UHGV virus genome: UHGV-0148877
Strand: one strand, 5' to 3'
DNA from: a virus
Length of the DNA: 40,227 bases
Shown here: one piece after another, positions 2,001-34,598 of the stretch
Position numbering within the stretch: the first letter of the stretch is position 1
Layout: each line of letters begins with the position of its first letter
Position numbers and translations under genes: made by a program
Notes under the pieces: generated by a model
Told to the model about the DNA's origin: nothing
Databases searched by the model: none
The model's input: the letters and a program-made list of their open reading frames with translations, nothing else

Positions 2001-2297
2001 TCAAATAGAGAAATAAACACAAAAACAAAAAACAACAGGAACAGCAAAATCCAACAGACTTCCCACATCCCACACGCGTGGATCAAAACCTCCCCACCAC
2101 GGCATGTTGATACGTTTCCCTTTCCCAAACTTTTCTATCCAGCGATATTCTGCCTGGGTGTGTTCACGCGCAATGAAGAACGTACAACCGGCTATCGCAC
2201 CGTAAGCCCAGTTTCCGGTAAAAATACCAACCAGTACCTGAGCCACAAAAGCGCAAAGCGAGTGAAGAAATGGAGTGACATCAATGCTCTTAATCAT
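2001..2297 (-). CDS. Small membrane protein translationally coupled to the tailspike gene
   Basis: 98 aa; ATG overlaps the tailspike stop (ATGA); two hydrophobic segments; function unknown. Confidence 0.45.
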   Translation of the reverse strand: MIKSIDVTPFLHSLCAFVAQVLVGIFTGNWAYGAIAGCTFFIAREHTQAEYRWIEKFGKGKRINMPWWGGFDPRVWDVGSLLDFAVPVVFCFCVYFSI

Positions 2298-4483
2298 GAA
2301 ACTTCCCCATTGGTTGAAAATATGGCTCCTCCAACGCCAAGTGTATTTCGTGTTGTGCTCAACCTCAGAGGGCTGGAGTCAGAATTAGAATATCCTGTAG
2401 CAGAAATAAAAGATCCTCCACTAATAGTCAACTGCGGAACATCGGCTATATCTGAATAAGTTCTGTCAGCAACAGTATTATTTATAGCCACATATGATCC
2501 AAAAAAACTTCTTATTGTTTGGTTTTTAACTTTACTTCCTTCAATGGTTATCCTACTACCACAGTCGGCAATAAATCCTGAATCTGCATCCAGCGTTGCA
2601 TTCATAAAAGAAGCTTCAGCTCTCTCTACATCAATCCATCTAATATCTTTTGTGGGATTTGCACCAAATACATGACAAATATTAGAGTTAAACCTTACAC
2701 CATCTTGGAGGTGCATTAATTTTTTTATATCTGTACCCCATAGCCTTGGAAAATTAACAGATGCTCCTGCATGGCAATCAAATCCCAGCTCAGCCCCTGA
2801 GATATCTACAGCCTTTCCTGAAATAACAGCACCAGTGTCTGCATTAACGGCTGTTCCACAATTGCGCATATCATTACCAGCAACATCAACGCAACCCGCA
2901 CCATCAATACGCACACCAAGTGCACATCCATAAAAACCTTTTTCAATATTTGGTTCAAGGACTTTACCACTTGTTTCTGCATCACTTTCTTCAACGTCAT
3001 GTCGTCTTGCATCAACATATGCTGTATGAATGCAGGTTAATCCACGATATGAGCAATGTATAGTTTTATGGTCGCGTATATTAACATTTGAACCATCTCT
3101 TACATTCCATCCTATATAACAATAGCTTGCACTTGACCCCTGAAAATCTGCTTTAACATTATAAATACAATTAACTGACGCAACCGTACTCTCTGTGCAC
3201 CGTTCAAACTTGCTTACAGGCATTGATGCCTTGACATTATTTACCAGTTGCAGGGAAGAGTATCTGCTATAAGAAAAATCACATACGTAATACCCTTCTG
3301 GCATATATGCAGCAACACTTTCCTCATCAGGAGCACATCCGGTATGATATGCACTAATTTTTGCACCAAAACTACCATGAATTCCAACGTAGAACTTTCG
3401 AGCACCTGAATACGGATAGAAATTAAGTTCAGCTTTTTGAGTTACAATAAATGCACAAACATCGCTATCATCTCTATTTTCTTCGATCTGAATAGCAAAT
3501 ACAGGACTTTTTGCTGCATCGCAAATGTAAAATAAATACTTGTATTCGTAATACGTTCTAACGATTTTAGTAAACAAACGAGTGTCAGAGAAAACCACTG
3601 AGTCTTCTGATGTTATTTTAATCCAAGACAAATCAACACCTGAACTGAATTCAATTTGATAGTTGATAATATGCCCGGTCTTAATTCTTATTTCGCAGAA
3701 AGCATTACCACCATCCCACATAGGTCTCATTGACTGGGCTGCAATGATTGCATCTTTGAGTGTAGGGTAATCACCCCATTCGCCAACAGTAATAACAAAA
3801 GTATAATATGAGTTAAAAACAGCGGCATTTTTGCCTTTGGATATCAACTCCTTAATCATAAAAATATTATCTTCGTAATCACAAGGAGAAATTATATCCC
3901 TCATTTTGCTTTGAAATGTTCGTTGTCTTGCCCCGCTTCCTGACGGTATAAACCAACCAAAACCACCAACAACCCCGGCGATTGCAGCATCGACATAATT
4001 ACGCATTGAGCGATTATTTACAGCGTCCTGCTCAAATGATGGATCTGCAAGGTTAGAAATTTTGTTTTGCTTTGCATCGTAATATTTTGCAAGCAAAGAT
4101 GGTTTCATCAATGCACGTCTGAACCACCCAAAACATCGCTGGATCAGCATCGTCAGGTAGTCAAATGCATCTTCATGAACTTCGGGGAAAAATTTTCCCT
4201 GATTGCGAAGATCAGTCTCCTGCACCACATCAAGCACACGCTCTATCGTAATTCGCCAGCCAGCAGCAAGCGGAGACGGAAGAACCACAGAACCGCCACT
4301 ATAAGTGCCCGCCCCAGTTACCGTATAACCGGTATCCAGAACCAATTCTGTTACGTTCCCGTTCAGGTCAGACACCTGAACAACCAGGTCTGATTTTTTG
4401 AAAATACGAAAAGTATACGGAAACGATGTCGTAACGCCGTTACCTGTGTATTCGTTGTGGTCAACTTCGGTTGAGACCGTCAT
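2294..4483 (-). CDS. Tailspike / receptor-binding protein
   Basis: 729 aa; N-terminus MTVSTEVDHNEYTGNGVTTSFPYTF resembles the conserved particle-binding domain of podovirus tailspikes; rest is Gly/Ser/Asn-rich as in beta-helix depolymerases; ATG with GGAG RBS; the C-terminal two thirds is visibly more AT-rich than flanking DNA. Confidence 0.8.
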   Translation of the reverse strand: MTVSTEVDHNEYTGNGVTTSFPYTFRIFKKSDLVVQVSDLNGNVTELVLDTGYTVTGAGTYSGGSVVLPSPLAAGWRITIERVLDVVQETDLRNQGKFFPEVHEDAFDYLTMLIQRCFGWFRRALMKPSLLAKYYDAKQNKISNLADPSFEQDAVNNRSMRNYVDAAIAGVVGGFGWFIPSGSGARQRTFQSKMRDIISPCDYEDNIFMIKELISKGKNAAVFNSYYTFVITVGEWGDYPTLKDAIIAAQSMRPMWDGGNAFCEIRIKTGHIINYQIEFSSGVDLSWIKITSEDSVVFSDTRLFTKIVRTYYEYKYLFYICDAAKSPVFAIQIEENRDDSDVCAFIVTQKAELNFYPYSGARKFYVGIHGSFGAKISAYHTGCAPDEESVAAYMPEGYYVCDFSYSRYSSLQLVNNVKASMPVSKFERCTESTVASVNCIYNVKADFQGSSASYCYIGWNVRDGSNVNIRDHKTIHCSYRGLTCIHTAYVDARRHDVEESDAETSGKVLEPNIEKGFYGCALGVRIDGAGCVDVAGNDMRNCGTAVNADTGAVISGKAVDISGAELGFDCHAGASVNFPRLWGTDIKKLMHLQDGVRFNSNICHVFGANPTKDIRWIDVERAEASFMNATLDADSGFIADCGSRITIEGSKVKNQTIRSFFGSYVAINNTVADRTYSDIADVPQLTISGGSFISATGYSNSDSSPLRLSTTRNTLGVGGAIFSTNGEVS

Positions 4484-4586: not shown

Positions 4587-4603
4587 ATTACCTTTCGGGT
4601 AAT
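4587..4603. promoter_or_regulatory. Operator palindrome ATTACC-TTTCG-GGTAAT
   Basis: Perfect 6+6 inverted repeat, about 75 nt upstream of the SOS-regulated small gene; an upstream hybrid copy ATTACC-TGAAA-AACCAC lies at 4538-4554. Confidence 0.55.
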
Positions 4604-4659: not shown

Positions 4660-4679
4660 ATTGCATGGAGAAGATTAAG

Positions 4680-4937
4680 ATGCAGCAGTATCACTATCCA
4701 CTGGAAGACGGATTTACCGAAAGGATTCACACGCCAGAAGGCGTCAGGTCACTGGTGGAGGGATCGCACTTGATGAAATTACTCCGGGATCTCGATAAGG
4801 ATGGATTTAATGTCGATGGCCCACTTGCCGAACTGACTGCACTGATTAACTACGTCACCAGCTCACAGATGTCTATGCAGGATCTGCAAACACATCTCGA
4901 CTATTGTGCCGAACAATTACGAAAACAAACCCGGTAA
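4680..4937 (+). CDS. Small SOS-regulated protein paralogous to the antirepressor C-terminal domain (candidate antirepressor)
   Basis: 85 aa from the ATG at 4680 (GGAGAAG RBS); LexA box directly upstream; aligns by eye (about 40% identity over about 40 residues) with the C-terminal about 70 aa of the Bro-N antirepressor at 6083-6769 (IHTPEGV/IHSPSGV, AELTALINYV/AELTTMFCYI, DLQTHLDY/DIQTHAEY). Confidence 0.5.
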   Translation: MQQYHYPLEDGFTERIHTPEGVRSLVEGSHLMKLLRDLDKDGFNVDGPLAELTALINYVTSSQMSMQDLQTHLDYCAEQLRKQTR

Positions 4938-4939
4938 AT

Positions 4940-4975
4940 TTAAAGGCCGCAAGAGCGGCCTATCGTTTCGCTTTG
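4940..4975. terminator. Bidirectional hairpin terminator between convergent genes
   Basis: AGGCCGC-AAGA-GCGGCCT hairpin flanked by A/T-rich runs on both sides, between the 4680-4937 (+) and 4960-5688 (-) genes. Confidence 0.5.
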
Positions 4976-5688
4976 TGCTCATCCCAGCACGTTTTGCACC
5001 ATGCCATTAAGCCGTCCGCATTTTGATTATTAGGGTAAAAGCTGGTTCGTTTTCTGCGGACATTACAAATTGGGCACCACTTCATATGGCGTGTATTCTT
5101 TGGGCCATCGAGACACCTTGCACACCACTTAGTCAATCCATCTGGATTTTTTGACGATTTCCTGAATTTTTCATATGGAAGGTTTATTCTGCATCGCAAG
5201 CACTGCTTGCTACCACTTGAAACTCTGTTAGCTGATTCTTCTTTTGGCGGCGATACAGAAGGTATTCTTGCTGGCTCTGATACTGCCTGAGGTGCTTTTT
5301 TAGATGACTGAGACGATATGTCATCACCAGGGAATCTTCCATGATATGCCGGACGCGTTGACACTCCAGGTGGAAGCTCAGCTGTAAACGGCTTTGGCTG
5401 AATCAGTTGCCTCTCTTTTGCTAACTCCTGCTGTTTATAATATGTCTGGATTACCGCACTATCATAAGCAGGAGGTGCGGAAATATTAGGCGCATTACCT
5501 CCAGTTTTTTGAAACTGAGTAGAGGTGTGTTCTATCACCTGTGTACGATTAATCGTTATCTCCCCATCTTCGGTCTTTATCGTTTTGTTATGATTAACGA
5601 CCGTACGATCAGAGATCTTAGTCTTGTTCTGGTTGATAACGTAAATAATCACCGCAACCACACCAACAACTATCCAGAAAACTTCCAT
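4960..5688 (-). CDS. Membrane-anchored protein with tandem Cys-rich (zinc-ribbon-like) C-terminal repeats
   Basis: 242 aa; N-terminal TM helix (VFWIVVGVVAVIIYVI), Pro/Ser-rich linker, then two repeats of C-x2-C ... DGL-x2-WC-x2-C (CLRC...DGLTKWCARC; CPIC...DGLMAWCKTC); AT-rich; no family recognised. Confidence 0.55.
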   Translation of the reverse strand: MEVFWIVVGVVAVIIYVINQNKTKISDRTVVNHNKTIKTEDGEITINRTQVIEHTSTQFQKTGGNAPNISAPPAYDSAVIQTYYKQQELAKERQLIQPKPFTAELPPGVSTRPAYHGRFPGDDISSQSSKKAPQAVSEPARIPSVSPPKEESANRVSSGSKQCLRCRINLPYEKFRKSSKNPDGLTKWCARCLDGPKNTRHMKWCPICNVRRKRTSFYPNNQNADGLMAWCKTCWDEHKAKR

Positions 5689-5707
5689 TGCTTTTCCTCA
5701 CAATAAC

Positions 5708-5724
5708 ATTACTTTAAAGGTAAT
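5708..5724. promoter_or_regulatory. Operator-like palindrome ATTACT-TTAAA-GGTAAT
   Basis: 9/10 core match, 20 nt upstream of the start of the minus-strand membrane-protein gene (5688). Confidence 0.4.
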
Positions 5725-5800
5725 ATCTTGCTTTCAGGTGATCAAGCGTTAAACGCAATCAACCAAATACGGTTGATTTTAATATTTCTTCGCGTTTATC

Positions 5801-5817
5801 ATTACCTTTGCGGTAAA
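5801..5817. promoter_or_regulatory. Operator palindrome ATTACC-TTTGC-GGTAAA
   Basis: Perfect TTACC-N5-GGTAA core in the divergent region between the membrane-protein gene and the antirepressor gene. Confidence 0.5.
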
Positions 5818-6082
5818 TTTACATCGCACTCCTCTTGTGCCATAGTAATCGGGCACTGGCAAAATCCAGTGCCGGGATTGGCGTCCCGAGTTACTACAGA
5901 GGCACATATGCCGCATAAGCGGTTTTTTTATGTGTAAAGCGCACCTATTCTATGGTGGGCTGTGTGGGGGCACCGAAAGGTGCGCCGGGTCCTTTGTAGC
6001 CGGTTACGCCAACCCTGCACAGTTCACCACCAACCGATTGGCGTCGGTAGTGGTGATTAACCTAACTACAAAGGTGATCGCT

Positions 6083-6769
6083 ATGACTGCTAACGTAACC
6101 CCATCTGTTTTTCATTTTGAATCAGAAGCAACCATTCGAGCCATTGTTATTGATGGAAATCCTTGGTTTGTTGCCAAAGACGTTATTAAAGCTCTTCAAC
6201 TGACAAACCCCACTATGTCAATAAAATCTCTTGATGATGATGAAAGGGCTAAATTTAACTTAGGCCGTCAAGGCGAAACCAATATTATCAACGAGTCAGG
6301 CCTCTACACACTGATCCTCCGCTGCCGCGACGCAGTGACACCAGGCACTATCCCCTACCGCTTTCGTAAATGGGTTACAGGTGAGGTTCTTCCTCAGATC
6401 CGCCGCACCGGAAGTTACATTAAAAACTCGCTCCCGCAGGAAGAACGCATAAAGATGGTTGCCGACCAGGTAGCCAACGCCACGGCGTCAGCAGTAATGC
6501 AGGCGATGAAGATAGAGAACAAAACCTACAGTGCCCCACTGAAGCCCGGCTACCGCAGCCTGATTCATTCGCCGTCTGGTGTTCTCGGCCTGACGGAGAA
6601 CTCACTGCTGATGAATCTGCTGAACCAGTTACAGGACGACGGGCACGACGTATCGGGCGCGGCGGCGGAGCTGACCACCATGTTCTGCTACATCGTCGGT
6701 GTGAGCAAATGCCTGCGTGATATCCAGACGCACGCGGAGTACATCAACGACAAGGCAGGGTTCTTCTGA
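6083..6769 (+). CDS. Antirepressor with Bro-N domain
   Basis: 228 aa from the ATG at 6083 (AAGGTGA RBS); N-terminus IRAIVIDGNPWFVAKDVIKAL matches the Bro-N pattern; C-terminal domain paralogous to the 4680-4937 product. Confidence 0.8.
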   Translation: MTANVTPSVFHFESEATIRAIVIDGNPWFVAKDVIKALQLTNPTMSIKSLDDDERAKFNLGRQGETNIINESGLYTLILRCRDAVTPGTIPYRFRKWVTGEVLPQIRRTGSYIKNSLPQEERIKMVADQVANATASAVMQAMKIENKTYSAPLKPGYRSLIHSPSGVLGLTENSLLMNLLNQLQDDGHDVSGAAAELTTMFCYIVGVSKCLRDIQTHAEYINDKAGFF

Positions 6770-6813: not shown

Positions 6814-6842
6814 TTGCAGACTGTGGGTGAATAGCGTACTAT
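6814..6842 (+). promoter_or_regulatory. Sigma70-like promoter (TTGCAG-17-TACTAT) overlapping an operator
   Basis: -35 TTGCAG at 6814-6819, 17-bp spacer, -10 TACTAT at 6837-6842; the palindrome at 6841-6857 overlaps the -10 and start region. Confidence 0.45.
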
Positions 6843-6857
6843 TACCTCAAGGGTAAA
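6841..6857. promoter_or_regulatory. Operator palindrome ATTACC-TCAAG-GGTAAA
   Basis: Perfect TTACC-N5-GGTAA core overlapping the -10 of the promoter that reads into the toxin-antitoxin-like pair. Confidence 0.5.
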
Positions 6858-6916: not shown

Positions 6917-7096
6917 ATGCGAAACGAAAAATTGCAGATGCGTAGAGCGCAAGCTGCCGCAAGACGTTCTTTCAATGGAAGCGTAGAGTGCGTAAAAGTT
7001 ACTATGACAAAAGATCACGCAAGTCGCGTATCCCGCGCTTTCTTTGATTCTCGTAACAATAAGGAAAATTATGAGTTCGTCTGCGTCGCAGAATGA
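6917..7096 (+). CDS. Small basic protein, candidate antitoxin (below the ORF-track cut-off)
   Basis: 59 aa (MRNEKLQMRRAQAAARRSF...), ATG with GAGGTAAT RBS; overlaps the start of the downstream toxin-like gene by 26 nt, the usual antitoxin-toxin arrangement. Confidence 0.3.
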   Translation: MRNEKLQMRRAQAAARRSFNGSVECVKVTMTKDHASRVSRAFFDSRNNKENYEFVCVAE

Positions 7097-7616
7097 TAAA
7101 AATCAAATTGTCAGATATAAGGGTCGAGTATTGCATACGCAAAATTTCTCGGCCCTTTGTGCATCTGATCTTGAGCTGAAGAAAGTATCTGATGCCTTTA
7201 CCCAGTATTGGAAAACGGGATACCATCCATCTCTTGGTAAAGATGCTGCATTTGCTCGTCCGACAGAAATGCTTAAACTAAATGTCAGGCATACTCATGT
7301 CGATAACCAAGACTATATTCCAGAAGATAGTGATAAAAAACACACTGGTAAAAAATCATCTTGGGATGCATGGAAAAAAATAGCGTCTGTGCAAGTAAAA
7401 TGCATACCAACAAGTAATTGCTTTTTAGTTTATTCGGTAAATCACAATCGTGATGCGCTGGTTATGTTTTTTGTTGACGCAGATGCCCACAACATAACTG
7501 AGCAAGAAGAGTTTAAAGAGGCAGCAATCACTATCAGTTATCAATTCTTTGAGAAAACAAAAACAGAACCAATGCCTTTAGAAGAAGATCTTTTTTCTGA
7601 TAAATGGAAGGAATAA
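7071..7616 (+). CDS. YafO-like toxin-family protein (putative ribosome-dependent mRNA interferase)
   Basis: 181 aa from the ATG at 7071 (AAGGAAAA RBS); segments DAFTQYWKTGYHPSLGKDAAF, LKLNVRHTHV and CFLVYSVNHNRDALVMFFV resemble the conserved blocks I recall for YafO-family toxins; AT-rich; family assignment is from memory. Confidence 0.45.
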   Translation: MSSSASQNDKNQIVRYKGRVLHTQNFSALCASDLELKKVSDAFTQYWKTGYHPSLGKDAAFARPTEMLKLNVRHTHVDNQDYIPEDSDKKHTGKKSSWDAWKKIASVQVKCIPTSNCFLVYSVNHNRDALVMFFVDADAHNITEQEEFKEAAITISYQFFEKTKTEPMPLEEDLFSDKWKE

Positions 7617-22205: not shown

Positions 22206-22488
22206 TGGCCTCTTTGGCCATCTTTAAATACTGTTCAGGGCAATGCGCCATAACGCGCTGAAACAGTTCCAGCGCCAGATTGCGTTGCCCCTCATTAAAT
22301 GCCATAGCCATAGCGTCCATCGGTGAGATAGCAGAAAACACACGGCCTTTCTCCAGCACCGACCAGACAACGCGACGCCCCTGTTCACTGCTCATGACAA
22401 AGCGAATGTCATCAATTTCACGCTGTGCCATGTCACGTTGCTTACGGGCGTTTTCTTCTTTCAGTTGATCGTCTTCGTAATCTGTCAT
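22192..22488 (-). CDS. Hypothetical head-module protein
   Basis: 98 aa ORF whose start overlaps the portal stop. Confidence 0.4.
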   Translation of the reverse strand: MTDYEDDQLKEENARKQRDMAQREIDDIRFVMSSEQGRRVVWSVLEKGRVFSAISPMDAMAMAFNEGQRNLALELFQRVMAHCPEQYLKMAKEASEQR

Positions 22489-24164
22489 TGTGATTGCCCA
22501 CCCTGACCACTAACTGCATTCGCCATAGCTGACAAAACACTCGGATCCGAAGTTTTAGCTTCGCTTAGCGTCTTGGCACCCTGTGCCGCCGCCATCCCCA
22601 TCGCCATCATTTGTTGCTGCTGTTGTTGCTGTGCCCGTTGCTGGCGAGCCTGCTCAACCTGTTCCTGCGGAACAATGACGGTTGGAGACACTCCGGACAT
22701 ATCAGCGAATGCATCGATCGCCTGATCAACGTTGAGTTTGTCGAGAGCTTCTGGTTTCGCTTGCGCAAGTTGACCAATGAAGTTGACCGTGGATGCCAGA
22801 CTGGACAGGCCGATAGACTTCTGCGCCTGAGCCATGACGGAAATGTATTCGACCTTCAGGGGCATACCTTCCATCGCGTCAGGCGGTGGCGGCAGCATGT
22901 TTTTACGCACCATCATCGAGAAAGCGCGGTCAATGAGAGGATTAAGACATTCGTCGTTCAGACGCTCCAGAACCGGCCCCAACATCAGAAGTTTTTCTTC
23001 TTTCATTTCGATCACCGCTTCAACAGGCATCGAGCGGGTATTGATGTTCTGCAACATCATGAACAGATCGACAAAGTAGGCGCTGTTAATGATTTGGCGA
23101 GTGTCCTGAATGTCTGCCACCAGATCTGCTGTACTGGGGTTAACCAGATAAGCAGGCCTGAAACCATCCTGACCAGTAATCTGATCGATATACGTGATGT
23201 CGCCAGGAAGAAGGGAGGCGCGCTGATTCTTGAGGGAAGTCGGAGCAACCATCGGCGGATTGGTGGCTTTATCAATCAACTGCGACTTGCGCTTCTGGAG
23301 AAGCTGCAATGCCTTAACAGGTCCAAGCGCCAGCATACCCGGGCATGATGATCCATAAACATCTTCGCCATTAACTTCCCAGCGCGGAGCCATAATTGGA
23401 AACTCATCGAATCCGGACTCACGCAACAACTTGTCGTTATCGCCACCAACCTCGTAATAAACCGATTTGAATGGCTTGTTCTTGCTATCCAGCTTCGATG
23501 TATCGCGGTCAATGTTCGGGTAAACCGAATGCATCACTTCGATCCACTTCTCGTAGGTGCCGCTTTCCCACATGCTTTTTACGGATTCGCTGACGTTATT
23601 TAGCCCGAACTCCTGAACAAGCTGACGAACAGTCATAGAGAACTTGCGAAAACAGGTGTCAACACTGCCACGAGGTGAGTTAGCCAGGTAGTAACTGCCT
23701 ATCGGGAATGGCATTGTGCGAATGATGTCCTCGTCATCCTCCAGCACTGCCATTGCACCGGTGCTGTATGTGCCGAGGCTTCCGTATAACTGCGGAAGAG
23801 ACTGGTAGAGATTCGACTTATTGAACATATCGTTCATGCGGTTCTGCACCGCCTCAAGCCACAACTTAACAGGGCCATAATCCATCATTTCAGGATCTGG
23901 CGTAGCCAGGCGAAACCACGGACGCGCGGGGCTTGTGATGCCTGACATCATGCCGCTGGCGAGAGTGCGCGCCGCCATAGTCCCGGTCGAATCAATAATA
24001 CGTGTATTGCGTCGATCGTTACGGTTGACCTCAGAAGTCAGAAAGCGGGAACCACGCGGGTTGATGTAATCACTCAACTCGCGCCAGTGCGGCTCGAACG
24101 ACTGACGCTCGCTTTCAAGTTGTGCGAACTGTTTGTTCAATCGCTCTTTAGTTGTTTCCGCCAT
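22485..24164 (-). CDS. Portal protein
   Basis: 559 aa; placed after TerL; C-terminal poly-Gln/Ala tail (QARQQRAQQQQQQQMMAMGMAAAQGA). Confidence 0.8.
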   Translation of the reverse strand: MAETTKERLNKQFAQLESERQSFEPHWRELSDYINPRGSRFLTSEVNRNDRRNTRIIDSTGTMAARTLASGMMSGITSPARPWFRLATPDPEMMDYGPVKLWLEAVQNRMNDMFNKSNLYQSLPQLYGSLGTYSTGAMAVLEDDEDIIRTMPFPIGSYYLANSPRGSVDTCFRKFSMTVRQLVQEFGLNNVSESVKSMWESGTYEKWIEVMHSVYPNIDRDTSKLDSKNKPFKSVYYEVGGDNDKLLRESGFDEFPIMAPRWEVNGEDVYGSSCPGMLALGPVKALQLLQKRKSQLIDKATNPPMVAPTSLKNQRASLLPGDITYIDQITGQDGFRPAYLVNPSTADLVADIQDTRQIINSAYFVDLFMMLQNINTRSMPVEAVIEMKEEKLLMLGPVLERLNDECLNPLIDRAFSMMVRKNMLPPPPDAMEGMPLKVEYISVMAQAQKSIGLSSLASTVNFIGQLAQAKPEALDKLNVDQAIDAFADMSGVSPTVIVPQEQVEQARQQRAQQQQQQQMMAMGMAAAQGAKTLSEAKTSDPSVLSAMANAVSGQGGQSQ

Positions 24165-24178
24165 TTCAATGACTCCGG

Positions 24179-24385
24179 TTACTGACCAAGTAGCGTTTTA
24201 CCGCTGGTATTAGCGGTTGATGTGTCGCCCTGAGAACCGGTAAGCAGCGTAGAACTACGACCAGCAGCAGCGCGACGGCGACGTGTTTCTTCGTCGCGGG
24301 CATCAACAACGGCGGCATCCTGCTCCTGTGGTGCTGCCTGAACTTCTGGTGTTGCAGGCACTGATGGTGAGCTACCCATGCACAT
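24179..24385 (-). CDS. Small low-complexity protein upstream of portal
   Basis: 68 aa, Ala/Arg/Pro/Thr-rich; ATG with GGAG RBS 9 nt upstream; ends 12 nt before the portal start. Confidence 0.3.
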   Translation of the reverse strand: MCMGSSPSVPATPEVQAAPQEQDAAVVDARDEETRRRRAAAGRSSTLLTGSQGDTSTANTSGKTLLGQ

Positions 24386-24474
24386 ATCAATGACTCCGTA
24401 CGCAATTAAATTATTACCAATTTAACCACATATGATTTATTTATCGTAGATAGTTGACATTTAACGCACAAATT

Positions 24475-24491
24475 ATTACCTTTCAGGTAAC
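24475..24491. promoter_or_regulatory. Operator palindrome ATTACC-TTTCA-GGTAAC, with a TTGACA hexamer at 24454-24459
   Basis: Perfect TTACC-N5-GGTAA core; same TTGACA-then-palindrome arrangement as at 34689-34733; oriented toward the plus-strand tRNA. Confidence 0.55.
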
Positions 24492-24812
24492 TAAAGAGTT
24501 CATTCCGGTTGCTAACCTGACTGGCTTGTCGTTAAATTGAACAGGTGGAGTGAGCTTTTGTTTTGAGCAGTACGGCGTATGGCACATGCGCCGATAGCGG
24601 TCTGGATACGTTTAAGGGGCACCCTCCCTTGCTCGGGCAAACGAACCAGGTAGCCGGAATGTGCAAGTCGAGCGGTTTTATTCCGCGCACGGGGATTCAC
24701 CATCCCGGCGATTCGGTGTGACGCCTCGGAAGAGACGAGGGTACAACGATGAGAGCATTTATGGAGCCGCGACAAAGTGTGGCGCCTTAACAGGCTAAGT
24801 GCTCTCAGCGTT

Positions 24813-24889
24813 GTGGCATTAGCTCAGTTGGACAGAGCAACCGCCTTCTAAGCGGTTGGTCGCAGGTTCGAATCCTGCATGCCACGCCA
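24813..24889 (+). tRNA. tRNA-Arg (anticodon UCU)
   Basis: 77 nt folded by hand: 7-bp acceptor stem GTGGCAT/ATGCCAC, D stem GCTC/GAGC, anticodon stem ACCGC/GCGGT with loop CTTCTAA (anticodon TCT), T stem GCAGG/CCTGC with loop TTCGAAT, discriminator G, encoded CCA. Confidence 0.9.
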
Positions 24890-24932
24890 GAATCACGCCT
24901 AAGGACCGTGATGCCAGAAGTTCCAGGTGCTT

Positions 24933-24975
24933 GGCGGTGATGGTTTCCCTTGAAGGACTATCACCGCCCTTTTTA
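24933..24975 (+). terminator. Intrinsic terminator downstream of the tRNA
   Basis: GGCGGTGAT...ATCACCGCC inverted repeat followed by CTTTTT. Confidence 0.5.
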
Positions 24976-25052
24976 CAGCAGGACGCCATTGCGATGACTT
25001 CATGCTGTAAACCAGTACAGCCACGGAAGGCATAACTCATTGCTTCCAGTTC

Positions 25053-25076
25053 GCCCGGTTCGCCGGGCATTTTTTT
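25053..25076 (+). terminator. Intrinsic terminator (second, stronger)
   Basis: GCCCGG-TTCG-CCGGGC perfect 6-bp stem with tetraloop, followed by A and TTTTTTT. Confidence 0.6.
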
Positions 25077-25205
25077 AAGGTGTGAATCATGAAATACGAA
25101 TTCGATGGATTTTGATGTCGTGACATGTCACAAACAGCCAGCCGATGAGCTGGCTTTGTTTTATCCTCACCAGAGGATATCAGCAGCATTATCCCCTCCA
25201 GAGGA

Positions 25206-26681
25206 TTAAGCATAGGGATCGTAATCTGTAATGGCCTTGCCTTGCTGGTTCTGCTGACCGGGAATTCGCAGACGCTTCGACACCGGGAAAGCAAACGTCA
25301 GCAGTAGCGCATCGCCTTTACCCGGCGAACGCCCAAGCCGCTCCTTGATATCTTCCTTCGGTTCGATAACGATTTTACCGTCCACGCGAACTTTGTACTC
25401 TGCCGCCGACAGGTCGTCCGCTGTTTCCTGGTCATCCAGCATGCCGCCCAGCCTCAGCCATGTCTTGCATGCATTGAACATCTCCCCACGCTTGTTAAGC
25501 ATCTGCGGGTCAGTGGACGCACCGCCGAACGGAACAAGTTGCCATGTACGTCCCCAGCCATCACCGATTGACTTCAAACCGGTTCCGTAACCGAAGTCGA
25601 TGAACACCGCGTCAGCCTGGTACTGGTCTTCAAAGTCAGCGATACGCTTCGCCATAATCAGATCGTCGGTGGTCTTGTTGCCAGTCCACAACACCTTACT
25701 GTGCAGCCCCTGCCGCAGGTATATCACAGCGTCATCAACGCCGGAGTATGCAGGGTCAACGCCGATTATCACCGGAGCATGTGCCACCTGCGCAGCAGTT
25801 ACCACCCGTTTCATTGCCTCGTCAGTAAGACCGGTAGGGATAAACTGCAATTCAGATGCATCAGGGAATATGCCGCGCACACGGATTTTAACGAAGTCGC
25901 TGTCTTCCCCGTAGTCATCAACCCATTTCTGCAACTGCTGTTTGTTGGTGCCTTCCACCGTCCGGCTGTCAATCTGCGCAGTTTTCCAGCGGTGTTTATA
26001 TTTGCGGAAACATTCGCGGAAACGCCCGGTATTACGCGTCGGGTTCCCGAACGCCACCCAGATGATTTCGGTGTCTTCGTCCGTCAGCGCACCCTCTGCT
26101 ACCTCCCACACCAGATCGGCAATGTTGGATGCTTCGTCGAAAACCACGATGATGCGTTTGCGCTCGTTGTGTAGTCCGGCGAATGCCTCAGTGTTGTGCT
26201 CAGACCAGGGGATTGCGTCAGCTCGCCACCGCTTGTCGTGCCCAGGATCATTGCTGTACATCGCGGTAGCGGTACAGGTAAACCAGTCTTTCGTGATGGC
26301 AAGGTTCGACCACTTGATAATTTCCGGCCAGGTCTTCGTTCGTAGCTGGTTGTCGGTGTTGGCGGTCACCACGACCTTACAATCCTCGCAAGTGGACATG
26401 CCCCAGTTGATCAGCATTGAGATGAATGCGGATTTACCAATACCGTGACCAGAAGCGCGTGCCAGCATAAGCGGCTGATATCGCGTCTCTGGATTCTGCA
26501 GGTGATCACGTATCTCTCGGAACGCATCGGCCTGCCACTGACGTGGACCGGTGGCATGTGCCAGTTCAGTACCCTCTTCCCCCCACGGGAACGCATAGAG
26601 GGCATAGCCAAGCGGATCGTGAGTGAACCCTGCAATATCCTCGATCAACTGCTCTTCAGGAGATAACGCTGTATCTGTCAC
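25206..26681 (-). CDS. Terminase large subunit
   Basis: 491 aa; N-terminal ATPase region with a Walker A-like GHGIGKS and C-terminal nuclease-like region; start (GTG with AGGATGG RBS) overlaps the TerS stop. Confidence 0.85.
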   Translation of the reverse strand: MTDTALSPEEQLIEDIAGFTHDPLGYALYAFPWGEEGTELAHATGPRQWQADAFREIRDHLQNPETRYQPLMLARASGHGIGKSAFISMLINWGMSTCEDCKVVVTANTDNQLRTKTWPEIIKWSNLAITKDWFTCTATAMYSNDPGHDKRWRADAIPWSEHNTEAFAGLHNERKRIIVVFDEASNIADLVWEVAEGALTDEDTEIIWVAFGNPTRNTGRFRECFRKYKHRWKTAQIDSRTVEGTNKQQLQKWVDDYGEDSDFVKIRVRGIFPDASELQFIPTGLTDEAMKRVVTAAQVAHAPVIIGVDPAYSGVDDAVIYLRQGLHSKVLWTGNKTTDDLIMAKRIADFEDQYQADAVFIDFGYGTGLKSIGDGWGRTWQLVPFGGASTDPQMLNKRGEMFNACKTWLRLGGMLDDQETADDLSAAEYKVRVDGKIVIEPKEDIKERLGRSPGKGDALLLTFAFPVSKRLRIPGQQNQQGKAITDYDPYA

Positions 26682-33277: not shown

Positions 33278-33478
33278 TCAGCTTGAATGTTGTGGGGAGG
33301 AATTAATCATGATCTGCTTAATCTCTGCCCTGATACGACGGTTTGATTCCATGGTGCACTCAACACAGTGTCCGTTGTAAACCCAGCGTTCACTGTCATG
33401 TCCGTGCTTACATGTTTTTCCGGTGTAGTAGCGTTTAAGTCCGCGCTTTGCGGCATCAATACGTGTAATGATTTCCAT
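33278..33478 (-). CDS. Small Cys-containing protein between cro-like and O genes (cII position)
   Basis: About 66 aa from the internal ATG at 33478 (MEIITRIDAAKRGLKRYYTGKTCKHGHDSERWVYNGHCVEC...); C-x3-H ... C-x2-C spacing suggests a zinc-binding motif. Confidence 0.4.
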   Translation of the reverse strand: MEIITRIDAAKRGLKRYYTGKTCKHGHDSERWVYNGHCVECTMESNRRIRAEIKQIMINSSPQHSS

Positions 33479-33557
33479 GGTAAGCCCTGTTATTAGTATT
33501 GGGATTACGGTTATTTTGTGCTGACACAAAAAAAAGATCAACCACATTTGGTTTTTT

Positions 33558-34013: not shown

Positions 34014-34598
34014 ATGAAAAGTATCCAGGACGTCCGCAGGCAAAATCTCAACGACTTGATCGACCGTGAATTCAATGGTGTTCAGACGCGGATGGCTGAA
34101 AAACTTGGAACTCAGGCAAATCTGGTAAACCGCTGGGCTCTTGGCAAGAAGGTTATCGGCGACCAGGTTGCGCGAAAAATTGAAGCTGCCGCCAATAAAC
34201 CCCGTAACTGGCTTGATATCGATCGCTCGCTTTCTCAGGAAGGTTTTCAGCCTGTCGGCCCGAGTGATATAGGTCAGCTGGCTGCTCACAACCTGGAACG
34301 CTGGATGAGCGAAAGCCGCGACCTTTCAACGCAGGGAAAACTACACCGCGCATCCGGCGTCGCCCAGGTGACAATCAGCCGCCTGTTAAACAATGAGGTC
34401 AGCGTTTCCATTTCCACCCTGGAGAATGTTGCATCCGCATTCGGGCGTCATGGCTATGAATTACTGATTCACCCGCACGACCCTGCGACTATCAACTATG
34501 ACCGCTCGCGCTACGCATTGTTACCCGAAACCGAGAAAGCAAAGATCGAAAGTTACATTGAATTTGTCATCAACCAGAACGAAAAAAACAAACAATAA
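34014..34598 (+). CDS. Prophage repressor (CI-like, HTH; no S24 peptidase domain evident)
   Basis: 194 aa; N-terminal HTH (GVQTRMAEKLGTQANLVNRWALGKK) and a second HTH-like segment (ASGVAQVTISRLLNNE); divergent from cro-like gene; flanked by operator clusters; followed by a terminator. Confidence 0.7.
   Translation: MKSIQDVRRQNLNDLIDREFNGVQTRMAEKLGTQANLVNRWALGKKVIGDQVARKIEAAANKPRNWLDIDRSLSQEGFQPVGPSDIGQLAAHNLERWMSESRDLSTQGKLHRASGVAQVTISRLLNNEVSVSISTLENVASAFGRHGYELLIHPHDPATINYDRSRYALLPETEKAKIESYIEFVINQNEKNKQ

Follow-up and report, generated by a model that had tools for sequence, protein, structure and literature searches.

A membrane-anchored tandem zinc-ribbon protein of epsilon15-like prophages as a candidate exclusion or defence factor

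The stretch of DNA analysed here (the window) comprises 40,227 nucleotides of the virus genome UHGV-0148877, an epsilon15/phiV10-like (Uetakevirus) temperate podophage that is closest to TL-2011b (96%), and it carries at positions 4960 to 5688, on the minus strand, a gene for a protein of 242 amino acids (WP_000451762), referred to below as the target. Our work identifies the target as a genuine, conserved gene of a temperate E. coli phage that is under purifying selection, and we tentatively suggest that its product may serve the immunity region in exclusion or defence, by an action on phage DNA at the cytoplasmic side of the inner membrane. Prediction and conservation show both the accessory status of the gene and its linkage to immunity regions, and these two properties support the exclusion interpretation. 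Judged from sequence, we rate as new that a putative accessory or exclusion gene of the immunity region has an architecture that has not been described before. Among the roles that the original prediction, made from the letters of the window alone, had put forward (superinfection exclusion, a membrane sensor or a lysis regulator), superinfection exclusion is the best candidate.

In the mechanism that we propose, a single N-terminal helix would anchor the protein in the inner membrane and leave the periplasm nearly empty of protein, a hairpin directly under the membrane would oligomerise, and a flexible tether of about 100 residues would position two basic Cys4 zinc ribbons in the cytoplasm. 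The ribbons would bind nucleic acid, and the protein would capture or block incoming phage DNA, or a DNA-associated phage protein, as it emerges at the cytoplasmic face. The outcome would be superinfection exclusion or defence for a lysogen or a freshly infected cell. In the window phage, the gene would be expressed from its own weak promoter under an operator of the main repressor and would be switched on together with the anti-repressor gene ant at infection or induction.

The nucleotide versions bear out that the gene is real: the 53 E. coli copies from viral contigs represent 36 distinct versions, all of which are intact (36/36), and in these E. coli versions the ratio of nonsynonymous to synonymous polymorphism (pN/pS) is 0.24 for the whole gene, 0.25 for the N-terminal 56 residues, 0.72 for the linker and 0.06 for the zinc ribbons. 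The identical protein is present on at least 1,000 public contigs, and the gene occurs in 129 of 5,426 complete E. coli genomes (about 2%), clinical and poultry isolates included, where every copy is full length, chromosomal and annotated as 'hypothetical protein'. A GC content of about 44% is unremarkable within the variable region. The gene is absent from phiV10, and there is none in the corresponding region of the epsilon15 GenBank record; it is therefore an accessory gene. In TL-2011b, the 242-codon open reading frame of the homologue (locus L001, 4459-5547) is intact; the record gives it only a misc_feature label ('similar to hypothetical protein'), so that the gap lies in the annotation and the gene is no pseudogene.

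Membrane anchor, hairpin, linker and tandem zinc ribbon

The gene, the parts of its product and the expression signals at its two ends are the following (positions are those of the window; models by AlphaFold2, AF2, with the predicted local distance difference test, pLDDT, as confidence):

4960-5688, minus strand: target coding sequence, 242 amino acids, ATG start, TAG stop (stop codon 4960-4962), from the list of open reading frames
5629-5685, minus strand: N-terminal transmembrane helix, residues 2-20 (AF2, pLDDT about 90)
5512-5625, minus strand: predicted juxtamembrane beta-hairpin, residues 22-59, with an E-D-G turn and one hydrophobic face (AF2, 53-sequence alignment)
5215-5511, minus strand: variable linker, residues 60-158 (low pLDDT, pN/pS 0.72)
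5089-5214, minus strand: zinc ribbon 1, residues 159-200, with the invariant cysteines C163, C166, C189 and C192 (pLDDT >90)
4963-5088, minus strand: zinc ribbon 2, residues 201-242, with the invariant cysteines C205, C208, C231 and C234 (pLDDT >90)
5695-5699, minus strand: Shine-Dalgarno sequence GAGGA, 6 nt ahead of the target ATG, read off the sequence
4944-4961: hairpin common to the convergent genes, terminator-like for the target on the minus strand, from a terminator scan

The terminator-like hairpin has a 7-bp stem with 6 GC pairs, is followed by the T-run tail TTAAATTT and overlaps the stop codon of the target.

AF2 was run twice, with 29 close homologues and then with 53 more diverse homologues. 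The helix and the zinc ribbons were modelled with confidence in the first run, and in the second run residues 160 to 241 were modelled as two zinc ribbons with a pLDDT above 90. The original prediction had described two copies of a Cys/Trp motif that resemble duplicated zinc ribbons, and this description is borne out: both copies are present (C163-x2-C166...D183-G-L-T-K-W-C189-x2-C192 and C205-x2-C208...D225-G-L-M-A-W-C231-x2-C234), the two 40-residue ribbon halves align without a gap at 35% identity (E 1e-7, for this single comparison), and the best matches among solved proteins are the zinc sites of Stc1, PacI and Hpy99I. No variation occurs at the eight cysteines and W188 among the 53 homologues, which reach down to about 20% identity, and W230, the DG pairs, F175, K161, K203 and R212 are conserved in at least 90% of them. 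The tandem ribbon domain is strongly basic, with an isoelectric point (pI) of 9.9 in the target and, for the family, a median pI of 9.8 and a median net charge of +15.

Among solved structures, Foldseek returned the tandem zinc finger of Stc1 (PDB 2LUY; E 4e-3, probability 0.89) as the best and the sole notable match, and the modelled fold of the tandem ribbon resembles the Stc1 finger in its two consecutive Cys4 sites, which are predicted zinc sites. The Pfam family Stc1 (PF12898) matches the target with 21 bits (E 5e-4), under its gathering threshold of 24.8 bits, and 27 of the 29 close homologues at E up to 1. The ribbons also match the zinc sites of PacI and Hpy99I; in a profile search of PDB sequences, ribbon 1 was aligned to the N-terminal zinc site of PacI, a weak match. 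On these sequence grounds, we assign the ribbon to the Stc1/PacI-type zinc-ribbon superfamily, with the target itself below the Pfam threshold. The PHROG profiles matched by the ribbons (E 1e-11 to 3e-3) are endonuclease VII, HNH endonuclease, Lar-like protein and primase, and ribbon 2 resembles the N-terminal zinc module of the phage endonuclease VII, HNH and Lar-like PHROGs. When 1.84 billion representative proteins were searched with a profile, 1,688 matched at E up to 1e-3, and besides proteins with the layout of the target these are proteins with 2 to 11 copies of the ribbon. In 82 such multi-ribbon proteins, Pfam found HNH (10), HNH_5 (10), Endonuclease_7 (8), HNH_4 (3), HEAT repeats (3), a J-domain (1) and, in single members, SF1/SF2 helicase domains; Stc1 itself was found at E up to 0.001 in 42 of the 82 (best E 3e-18). 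The predicted viral structures that share the fold belong mainly to phage and giant-virus proteins of the HNH and beta-beta-alpha-Me kinds. Taken by its sequence, the ribbon is most likely a portable, nucleic-acid-binding module. That the target is itself a nuclease was considered and rejected, as it has no catalytic beta-beta-alpha-Me motif and has only the zinc ribbon in common with these enzymes: there is no Pfam match to a catalytic HNH or Endonuclease_7 domain in the target, and the two families are not among the 25 Pfam families listed for 28 close homologues.

The N-terminal transmembrane helix and the Pro/Ser-rich linker had likewise been proposed at the outset, and both are present. 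The protein starts with M-E and continues with a strongly hydrophobic helix. Of 77 relatives, nearly all lack a lysine or arginine ahead of the helix and mostly have 3 to 5 in the next 15 residues; because of this distribution, the positive-inside rule predicts an N-out/C-in topology in which two residues are exposed outside and the remainder is cytoplasmic. A cytoplasmic location also suits the Cys4 zinc sites. A cleavable signal peptide was rejected on sequence features, since the n-region is without positive charge and no A-x-A site is present. In the AF2 model with 53 homologues, the helix is followed by the two strands of the hairpin (22-39 and 42-59, pLDDT about 77-93), where T39 and G42 are near-invariant (G42 in at least 90% of the 53 sequences) and a hydrophobic stripe of I31, I37, I44, I46 and I52 is conserved on a Thr-rich background. 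Since an isolated 18-residue hairpin is unlikely to stand alone, the modelled amphipathic hairpin beneath the membrane probably mediates oligomerisation. The linker differs in length and sequence among the homologues and is poorly conserved; it contains a predicted helix (77-93, pLDDT about 76-85), is then disordered with low pLDDT (about 94-158), and P, S, Q, A, T and G make up 56% of residues 57 to 158.

The target matches PHROG 6762, a family annotated as of unknown function, over its full length (residues 1-242 on profile positions 1-242, E 1.1e-150). We found 33 homologues; the close ones share 38-97% identity, are all named 'hypothetical' and come from Escherichia, Superficieibacter, Enterobacter, Citrobacter, Salmonella, Serratia, Providencia, Pectobacterium and Buttiauxella. 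The layout also recurs in more remote members, from Edwardsiella, Acinetobacter, Marinobacterium, Oceanobacter and Pseudoalteromonas as well as from the Yersinia phages YeP4-6 and the Aeromonas phage phiARM81mr. The family is rare: 11 loci were found in a scan of one genome each for 185,579 species, made with a narrow alignment, and 6 of 50,697 deposited phage records contain it. The protein had been described as belonging to no recognised family, and this assessment stands, given PHROG 6762, the Stc1 match below the Pfam threshold and the absence of a match in NCBIfam and PADLOC. No family in Pfam, NCBIfam or PADLOC is above threshold for the target, and PHROG 6762 has no characterised relative. 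A third homologue has a weak PADLOC match (E 0.011) to the CxxC part of HEAT_CxxC_PD-DEXK. In the library of papers that was searched, none mentions the target protein.

Immunity-region setting and control of expression

The relatives of the target are nearly always neighbours of phage repressor or anti-repressor genes. Single-linkage clustering of 37 representative loci, with 50% identity as the lower limit, gave 15 clusters. In 8 of the 15 clusters, the gene begins 15-55 bp past a CI-type repressor gene (HTH_3 and Peptidase_S24) on the same strand, with a small open reading frame between cI and the gene in one of these eight; in three further clusters, the gene abuts the 3' end of cI convergently, and at one Acinetobacter locus it lies behind an Arc/Mnt-like repressor gene and is divergent from a KilA-N anti-repressor gene. 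Pfam identified the CI protein at four loci, and the depositors had annotated it in phiARM81mr; with these as seeds, phmmer extended the assignment to the remaining loci. In lambda, the place immediately behind cI belongs to rexAB, and other phages have exclusion genes there. This position implies expression in lysogens and during the establishment of lysogeny, and in most other lineages the gene of the target family appears to be co-transcribed with cI. The epsilon15-like prophages have the gene in the same variable region as the window does. There it mostly converges with the last ejection-protein gene at a short distance and has ant and the tailspike gene nearby; it often follows a PHROG 450 or HicA gene or is divergent from a KilA-N anti-repressor gene. 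Its orientation varies between these prophages, and the gene is thus an independent unit. The neighbours across prophages include genes for HicA- and YafO-type toxins and one nuclease gene. In Marinobacterium-type phages, a staphylococcal-nuclease-like gene follows the pair of cI and target homologue (L101, 6654-7307; L126 and L129, 5648-6301), and the copy in L101 additionally carries an Excalibur domain; this gene may be an accessory gene or a functional partner.

In the window, the target lies between ant and the tailspike gene and is transcribed divergently from ant, as had been proposed. The signals in and around the spacer of the two genes are the following; the operators were found by a search of the whole window for the 17-bp palindrome ATTACC-N5-GGTAAT with up to 2 mismatches:

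5708-5724: operator ATTACTTTAAAGGTAAT, over the predicted -10 region and transcription start of the target
5801-5817: operator ATTACCTTTGCGGTAAA, over the -10 region of the ant promoter
4587, 5708, 5801 and 6841: operators, one at each accessory promoter region
33943: operator between the cro-like gene and the gene for the 194-aa repressor
34655 and 34717: operators directly after the repressor gene
31550 and 31612: operators in the region of the replication genes
27273 and 27291: operators upstream of the small terminase gene
1439, 12166, 24475 and 30486: operators elsewhere, three of them with 2 mismatches, which may be chance
5717-5745, minus strand: predicted promoter of the target, -35 TTGATC (5740-5745), 17-nt spacer, -10 TACCTT (5717-5722)
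5773-5817, plus strand: divergent ant/C4 promoter, TTGATT, 18-nt spacer, TATCAT, with the operator at 5801-5817 (promoter scan)
5840-6034, plus strand: RNA switch of the P1/P7 immI type in the ant leader (Rfam)

The palindrome has 15 sites in the window, as compared to 1.2 expected, and none of 100 shuffled sequences reached 15. The operators are often paired 62 bp apart, and the epsilon15 GenBank record annotates ATTACCTGTAAGGTAAT, the equivalent of the site at 4587, as a repressor-binding site. We considered an operator that travels with the gene as a sign of autoregulation and rejected this idea, as the operator is found genome-wide in this phage group. The geometry TTGAC(C)-17-TACCTT together with the operator recurs upstream of the homologues from Superficieibacter and from four related viral contigs, and the operator alone is also kept upstream of the Serratia and Pectobacterium homologues. 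At the Superficieibacter-type loci (L068, L070, L071, L073 and L074), a second perfect palindrome, TGTGACATGTCACA, lies immediately upstream of the -35 region at about 5925-5945; it is not present in the window, its spacing is unlike that of CRP sites, and it is a poor fit to a LexA box.

The original prediction had read the palindromes in the spacer as operators. This holds for the sites at 5708-5724 and 5801-5817; most of the other stem-loops are the RNA elements isrK, c4-a1b1 and C4, and since Rfam shows this, a reading of the spacer palindromes as operators only was rejected. Both isrK (5853-5929, plus strand, 74.2 bits) and the C4 antisense RNA (5948-6034, plus strand, 79.5 bits) score above their Rfam gathering cut-offs, and c4-a1b1 (5840-5892, plus strand) scores 44.3 bits, slightly under the cut-off of 46.7. 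The ant leader contains the direct repeats GATTGGCGTC (5876 and 6036) and ACTACAGAGG/ACTACAAAGG (5893 and 6065), and C4 carries the complementary ACGCCAACCC at 6006-6015; from their sequences, the repeats look like the a/b target pairs. As the two back-to-back promoters are each overlapped by an operator, the target and ant are predicted to be de-repressed jointly upon infection or induction, and it is reasonable to infer from these sites that the target is co-regulated with ant. The 194-aa repressor, whose gene lies about 28 kb from the target, is likely to be the trans-acting regulator of the target promoter. Overexpression of a repressor of the phiV10/ZX5 type blocked lytic growth (PMC9782041).

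The genes of the window to which these sites belong, or which flank the target, are:

6083-6769, plus strand: Bro-N anti-repressor gene ant, divergent from the target (Pfam Bro-N, 5e-20; PHROG anti-repressor Ant)
4665-4937, plus strand: PHROG 450 small gene, a free-standing copy of the Ant C-terminal domain
7044-7616, plus strand: YafO-like toxin gene (Pfam 23.2 bits, cut-off 25; PHROG 1651)
34014-34598, plus strand: phage repressor gene, 194 aa (Pfam HTH_3)

The minus strand carries, in this order, the ejection and structural genes, the variable region, the tailspike gene (2294-4483), and two holin genes and an endolysin gene; the genes for holins, endolysin and spanins make up a cassette of their own at about 1-1807, which a terminator separates from the target. 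Residues 145-226 of Ant match the same PHROG 450 profile as the gene at 4665-4937. A small gene divergent from the tailspike gene occupies this PHROG 450 slot in most related prophages, with an operator in the shared spacer; its identity as PHROG 450 is confirmed for the window, phiV10, epsilon15 and one viral contig only. The YafO-like gene is preceded by the operator at 6841-6857 and by a 59-aa open reading frame (6917-7096) that might encode the antitoxin. An 89-aa protein of the early operon (33278-33547, minus strand) has a Cys/His motif (YTGKTCKHGH...GHCVEC) unlike that of the target and is another small zinc-binding candidate. Between a 559-aa gene (22485-24164) and a 491-aa gene (25206-26681), there is a gap of about 1 kb (24165-25205) without an open reading frame of 90 aa or more, which contains the operator copy at 24475-24491.

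Exclusion and its alternatives

Several observations weigh against a role of the target in exclusion or defence. Only two residues of the protein are predicted to reach the periplasm, and most known injection blockers (SieA, Imm, Sp, Sim and HK97 gp15) expose domains in or beyond the membrane. Stc1, the only characterised and solved homologue of the tandem finger, uses its finger in yeast for protein-protein binding, which weakens the case for DNA binding by the ribbons. The defence models of PADLOC-DB 2.0.0 gave no match for the target or for two homologues. Moreover, the promoter of the target is weak by consensus and below the cut-off of a simple promoter scan, and the operator over its -10 region predicts repression in a lysogen of the window phage, so that protection of the lysogen would need leaky expression, or the protein would act only after infection or induction. 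A tension thus remains between a promoter that looks repressed in the lysogen of the window phage and a gene that rides with cI in most lineages; as judged from the sequences, early expression after infection would be common to both regulatory settings.

The same architecture could serve other functions. If the ribbons sensed phage nucleic acid or protein, and hairpin and helix then oligomerised, the membrane could be perturbed and the cell killed or arrested; we regard such an abortive-infection mechanism as rather unlikely. It would explain why the helix and the hairpin are conserved well beyond the needs of a passive anchor (pN/pS 0.25 versus 0.72 for the linker), the position next to cI fits rexAB-like abortive-infection genes equally well as exclusion genes, and elsewhere an SF1-type helicase region, a J-domain or coiled coils stand ahead of the tandem ribbon, a variety of N-terminal fusions that fits a portable sensor with interchangeable effectors. 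However, a lone helix without charged or pore-lining residues is a weak candidate for an effector, the PADLOC search revealed no similarity to known membrane effectors, and the pattern of the hairpin is not the clean alternation of a membrane-spanning one. The fact that the Stc1 finger is a protein-binding module in yeast would also suit a modulator of the lysis-lysogeny switch, in which the tethered fingers hold CI, Ant or a host factor at the membrane and so tune the establishment or maintenance of lysogeny. The consistent adjacency to cI, Arc/Mnt-like and ant genes and, in the window, the divergent, repressor-controlled promoter region common to the target and ant point in the same direction. 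We nevertheless consider this role decidedly unlikely: the neighbouring regulators are unrelated to each other (S24-type CI, the HTH-only epsilon15 type, Bro-N, KilA-N and Rha) so that they offer no apparent protein target in common, close relatives of the phage do without the gene, and the usual partners of the ribbon are nucleases.

There is a slim chance that the protein serves the phage itself by holding phage DNA at the membrane during replication or entry, in the manner of phi29 p16.7. By analogy, the layout with an N-terminal anchor, a spacer and a basic C-terminal domain is p16.7-like, and early, repressor-controlled expression is predicted in the window phage. Yet the gene is never part of a replication module, its distribution is patchy and accessory, and its apparent co-transcription with cI in most lineages would have it expressed in lysogens, which have no need of a replication organiser. 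The remaining roles of the original prediction find hardly any credence with us. The target is a membrane protein whose gene shares its strand in the window with the tailspike and lysis genes, as might be expected of a lysis regulator or a membrane sensor, but with only two residues outside the membrane it lacks a periplasmic domain for sensing, and regulation of lysis is at odds with a lysis cassette that is separate (about 1-1807, with the terminator in between), with the opposite strand relative to the lysis genes in other prophages, and with a gene that is never in the lysis cassette and sits beside cI in most lineages.

Returning to exclusion or defence, it is tempting to go one step further and to envisage the target as the first member of a hitherto unrecognised class of single-polypeptide exclusion proteins, in which DNA-binding ribbons on a long tether from an oligomeric anchor trap invading genomes at the cytoplasmic mouth of the injection channel. 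Such a class would be widespread among the temperate phages of Gammaproteobacteria, in their cI operons and immI regions; this extension is doubtful. If the target does act in exclusion or defence, it would be a compact one-gene system that is missed by current defence finders, and it would provide a first function for the very common 'C-x2-C...DG-x3-C-x2-C' ribbon carried by phage and giant-virus nucleases of the HNH and endonuclease VII types. The family is carried by phages of Acinetobacter, Aeromonas, Serratia, Yersinia, Edwardsiella and marine Gammaproteobacteria.

Comparison with known systems

The locus shows how accessory genes of epsilon15-like phages are wired, with P1-like scattered operators and a C4/isrK switch that jointly control the anti-repressor; the network of scattered operators in the window resembles the dispersed C1 operators of phage P1. 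Of the phage systems compared below (SieA, the rexAB type, p16.7, Kiwa and Zorya), the target belongs to none. With respect to position, one counterpart of the target is SieA of phage P22, which is likewise an accessory protein of the inner membrane with its own promoter. In P22, the order is 16 / sieA, orf59a, mnt / arc, ant, 9, and sieA thus lies between the last ejection-protein gene and immI, by the tailspike gene. Homologues of the target occupy the sieA position in Serratia, Providencia, Enterobacter-type and Yersinia prophages, and in the window the target is one step past it, between ant and the tailspike gene. The two proteins differ: SieA spans the membrane several times and has no zinc ribbons, the target combines a single helix with a large domain in the cytoplasm, and BLASTP of the target against P22 SieA gave no meaningful alignment.

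A second parallel is with systems of the RexAB/BstA type (RexAB of lambda, BstA of the Salmonella phage BTP1). The genes of the target family are likewise located directly 3' of cI on the same strand in 8 of the 15 clusters, and, as in the RexAB type, a membrane component is joined with a probable nucleic-acid-sensing component. Unlike RexAB, the target is a single polypeptide rather than a two-gene system and has no homology to it (no PADLOC match), and in the window the gene is not beside the repressor gene and appears to be controlled by the repressor.

For the ribbons, the tandem finger of Stc1 (PF12898, 2LUY) offers the same two consecutive CxxC...CxxC zinc sites, but Stc1 is a eukaryotic, soluble, protein-binding adaptor of RNA-interference-directed heterochromatin. 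PacI, Hpy99I, phage endonuclease VII and HNH homing endonucleases have the zinc module in common with the target, which, unlike these nucleases, would be a binding module only and is predicted to be membrane-tethered. Phi29 p16.7, with its N-terminal membrane anchor, spacer and cytoplasmic C-terminal DNA-binding domain, is likened to the target by layout only: its fold is helical, homeodomain-like and unrelated, and its gene is part of an early replication operon in a virulent phage, whereas members of the target family sit in the immunity regions and cI operons of temperate phages. Finally, Kiwa and Zorya represent the concept of a membrane-embedded component that is coupled to a DNA-binding component and deals with invading DNA near its site of entry. 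Both are multi-gene systems made of unrelated proteins, and the target is without a PADLOC match.

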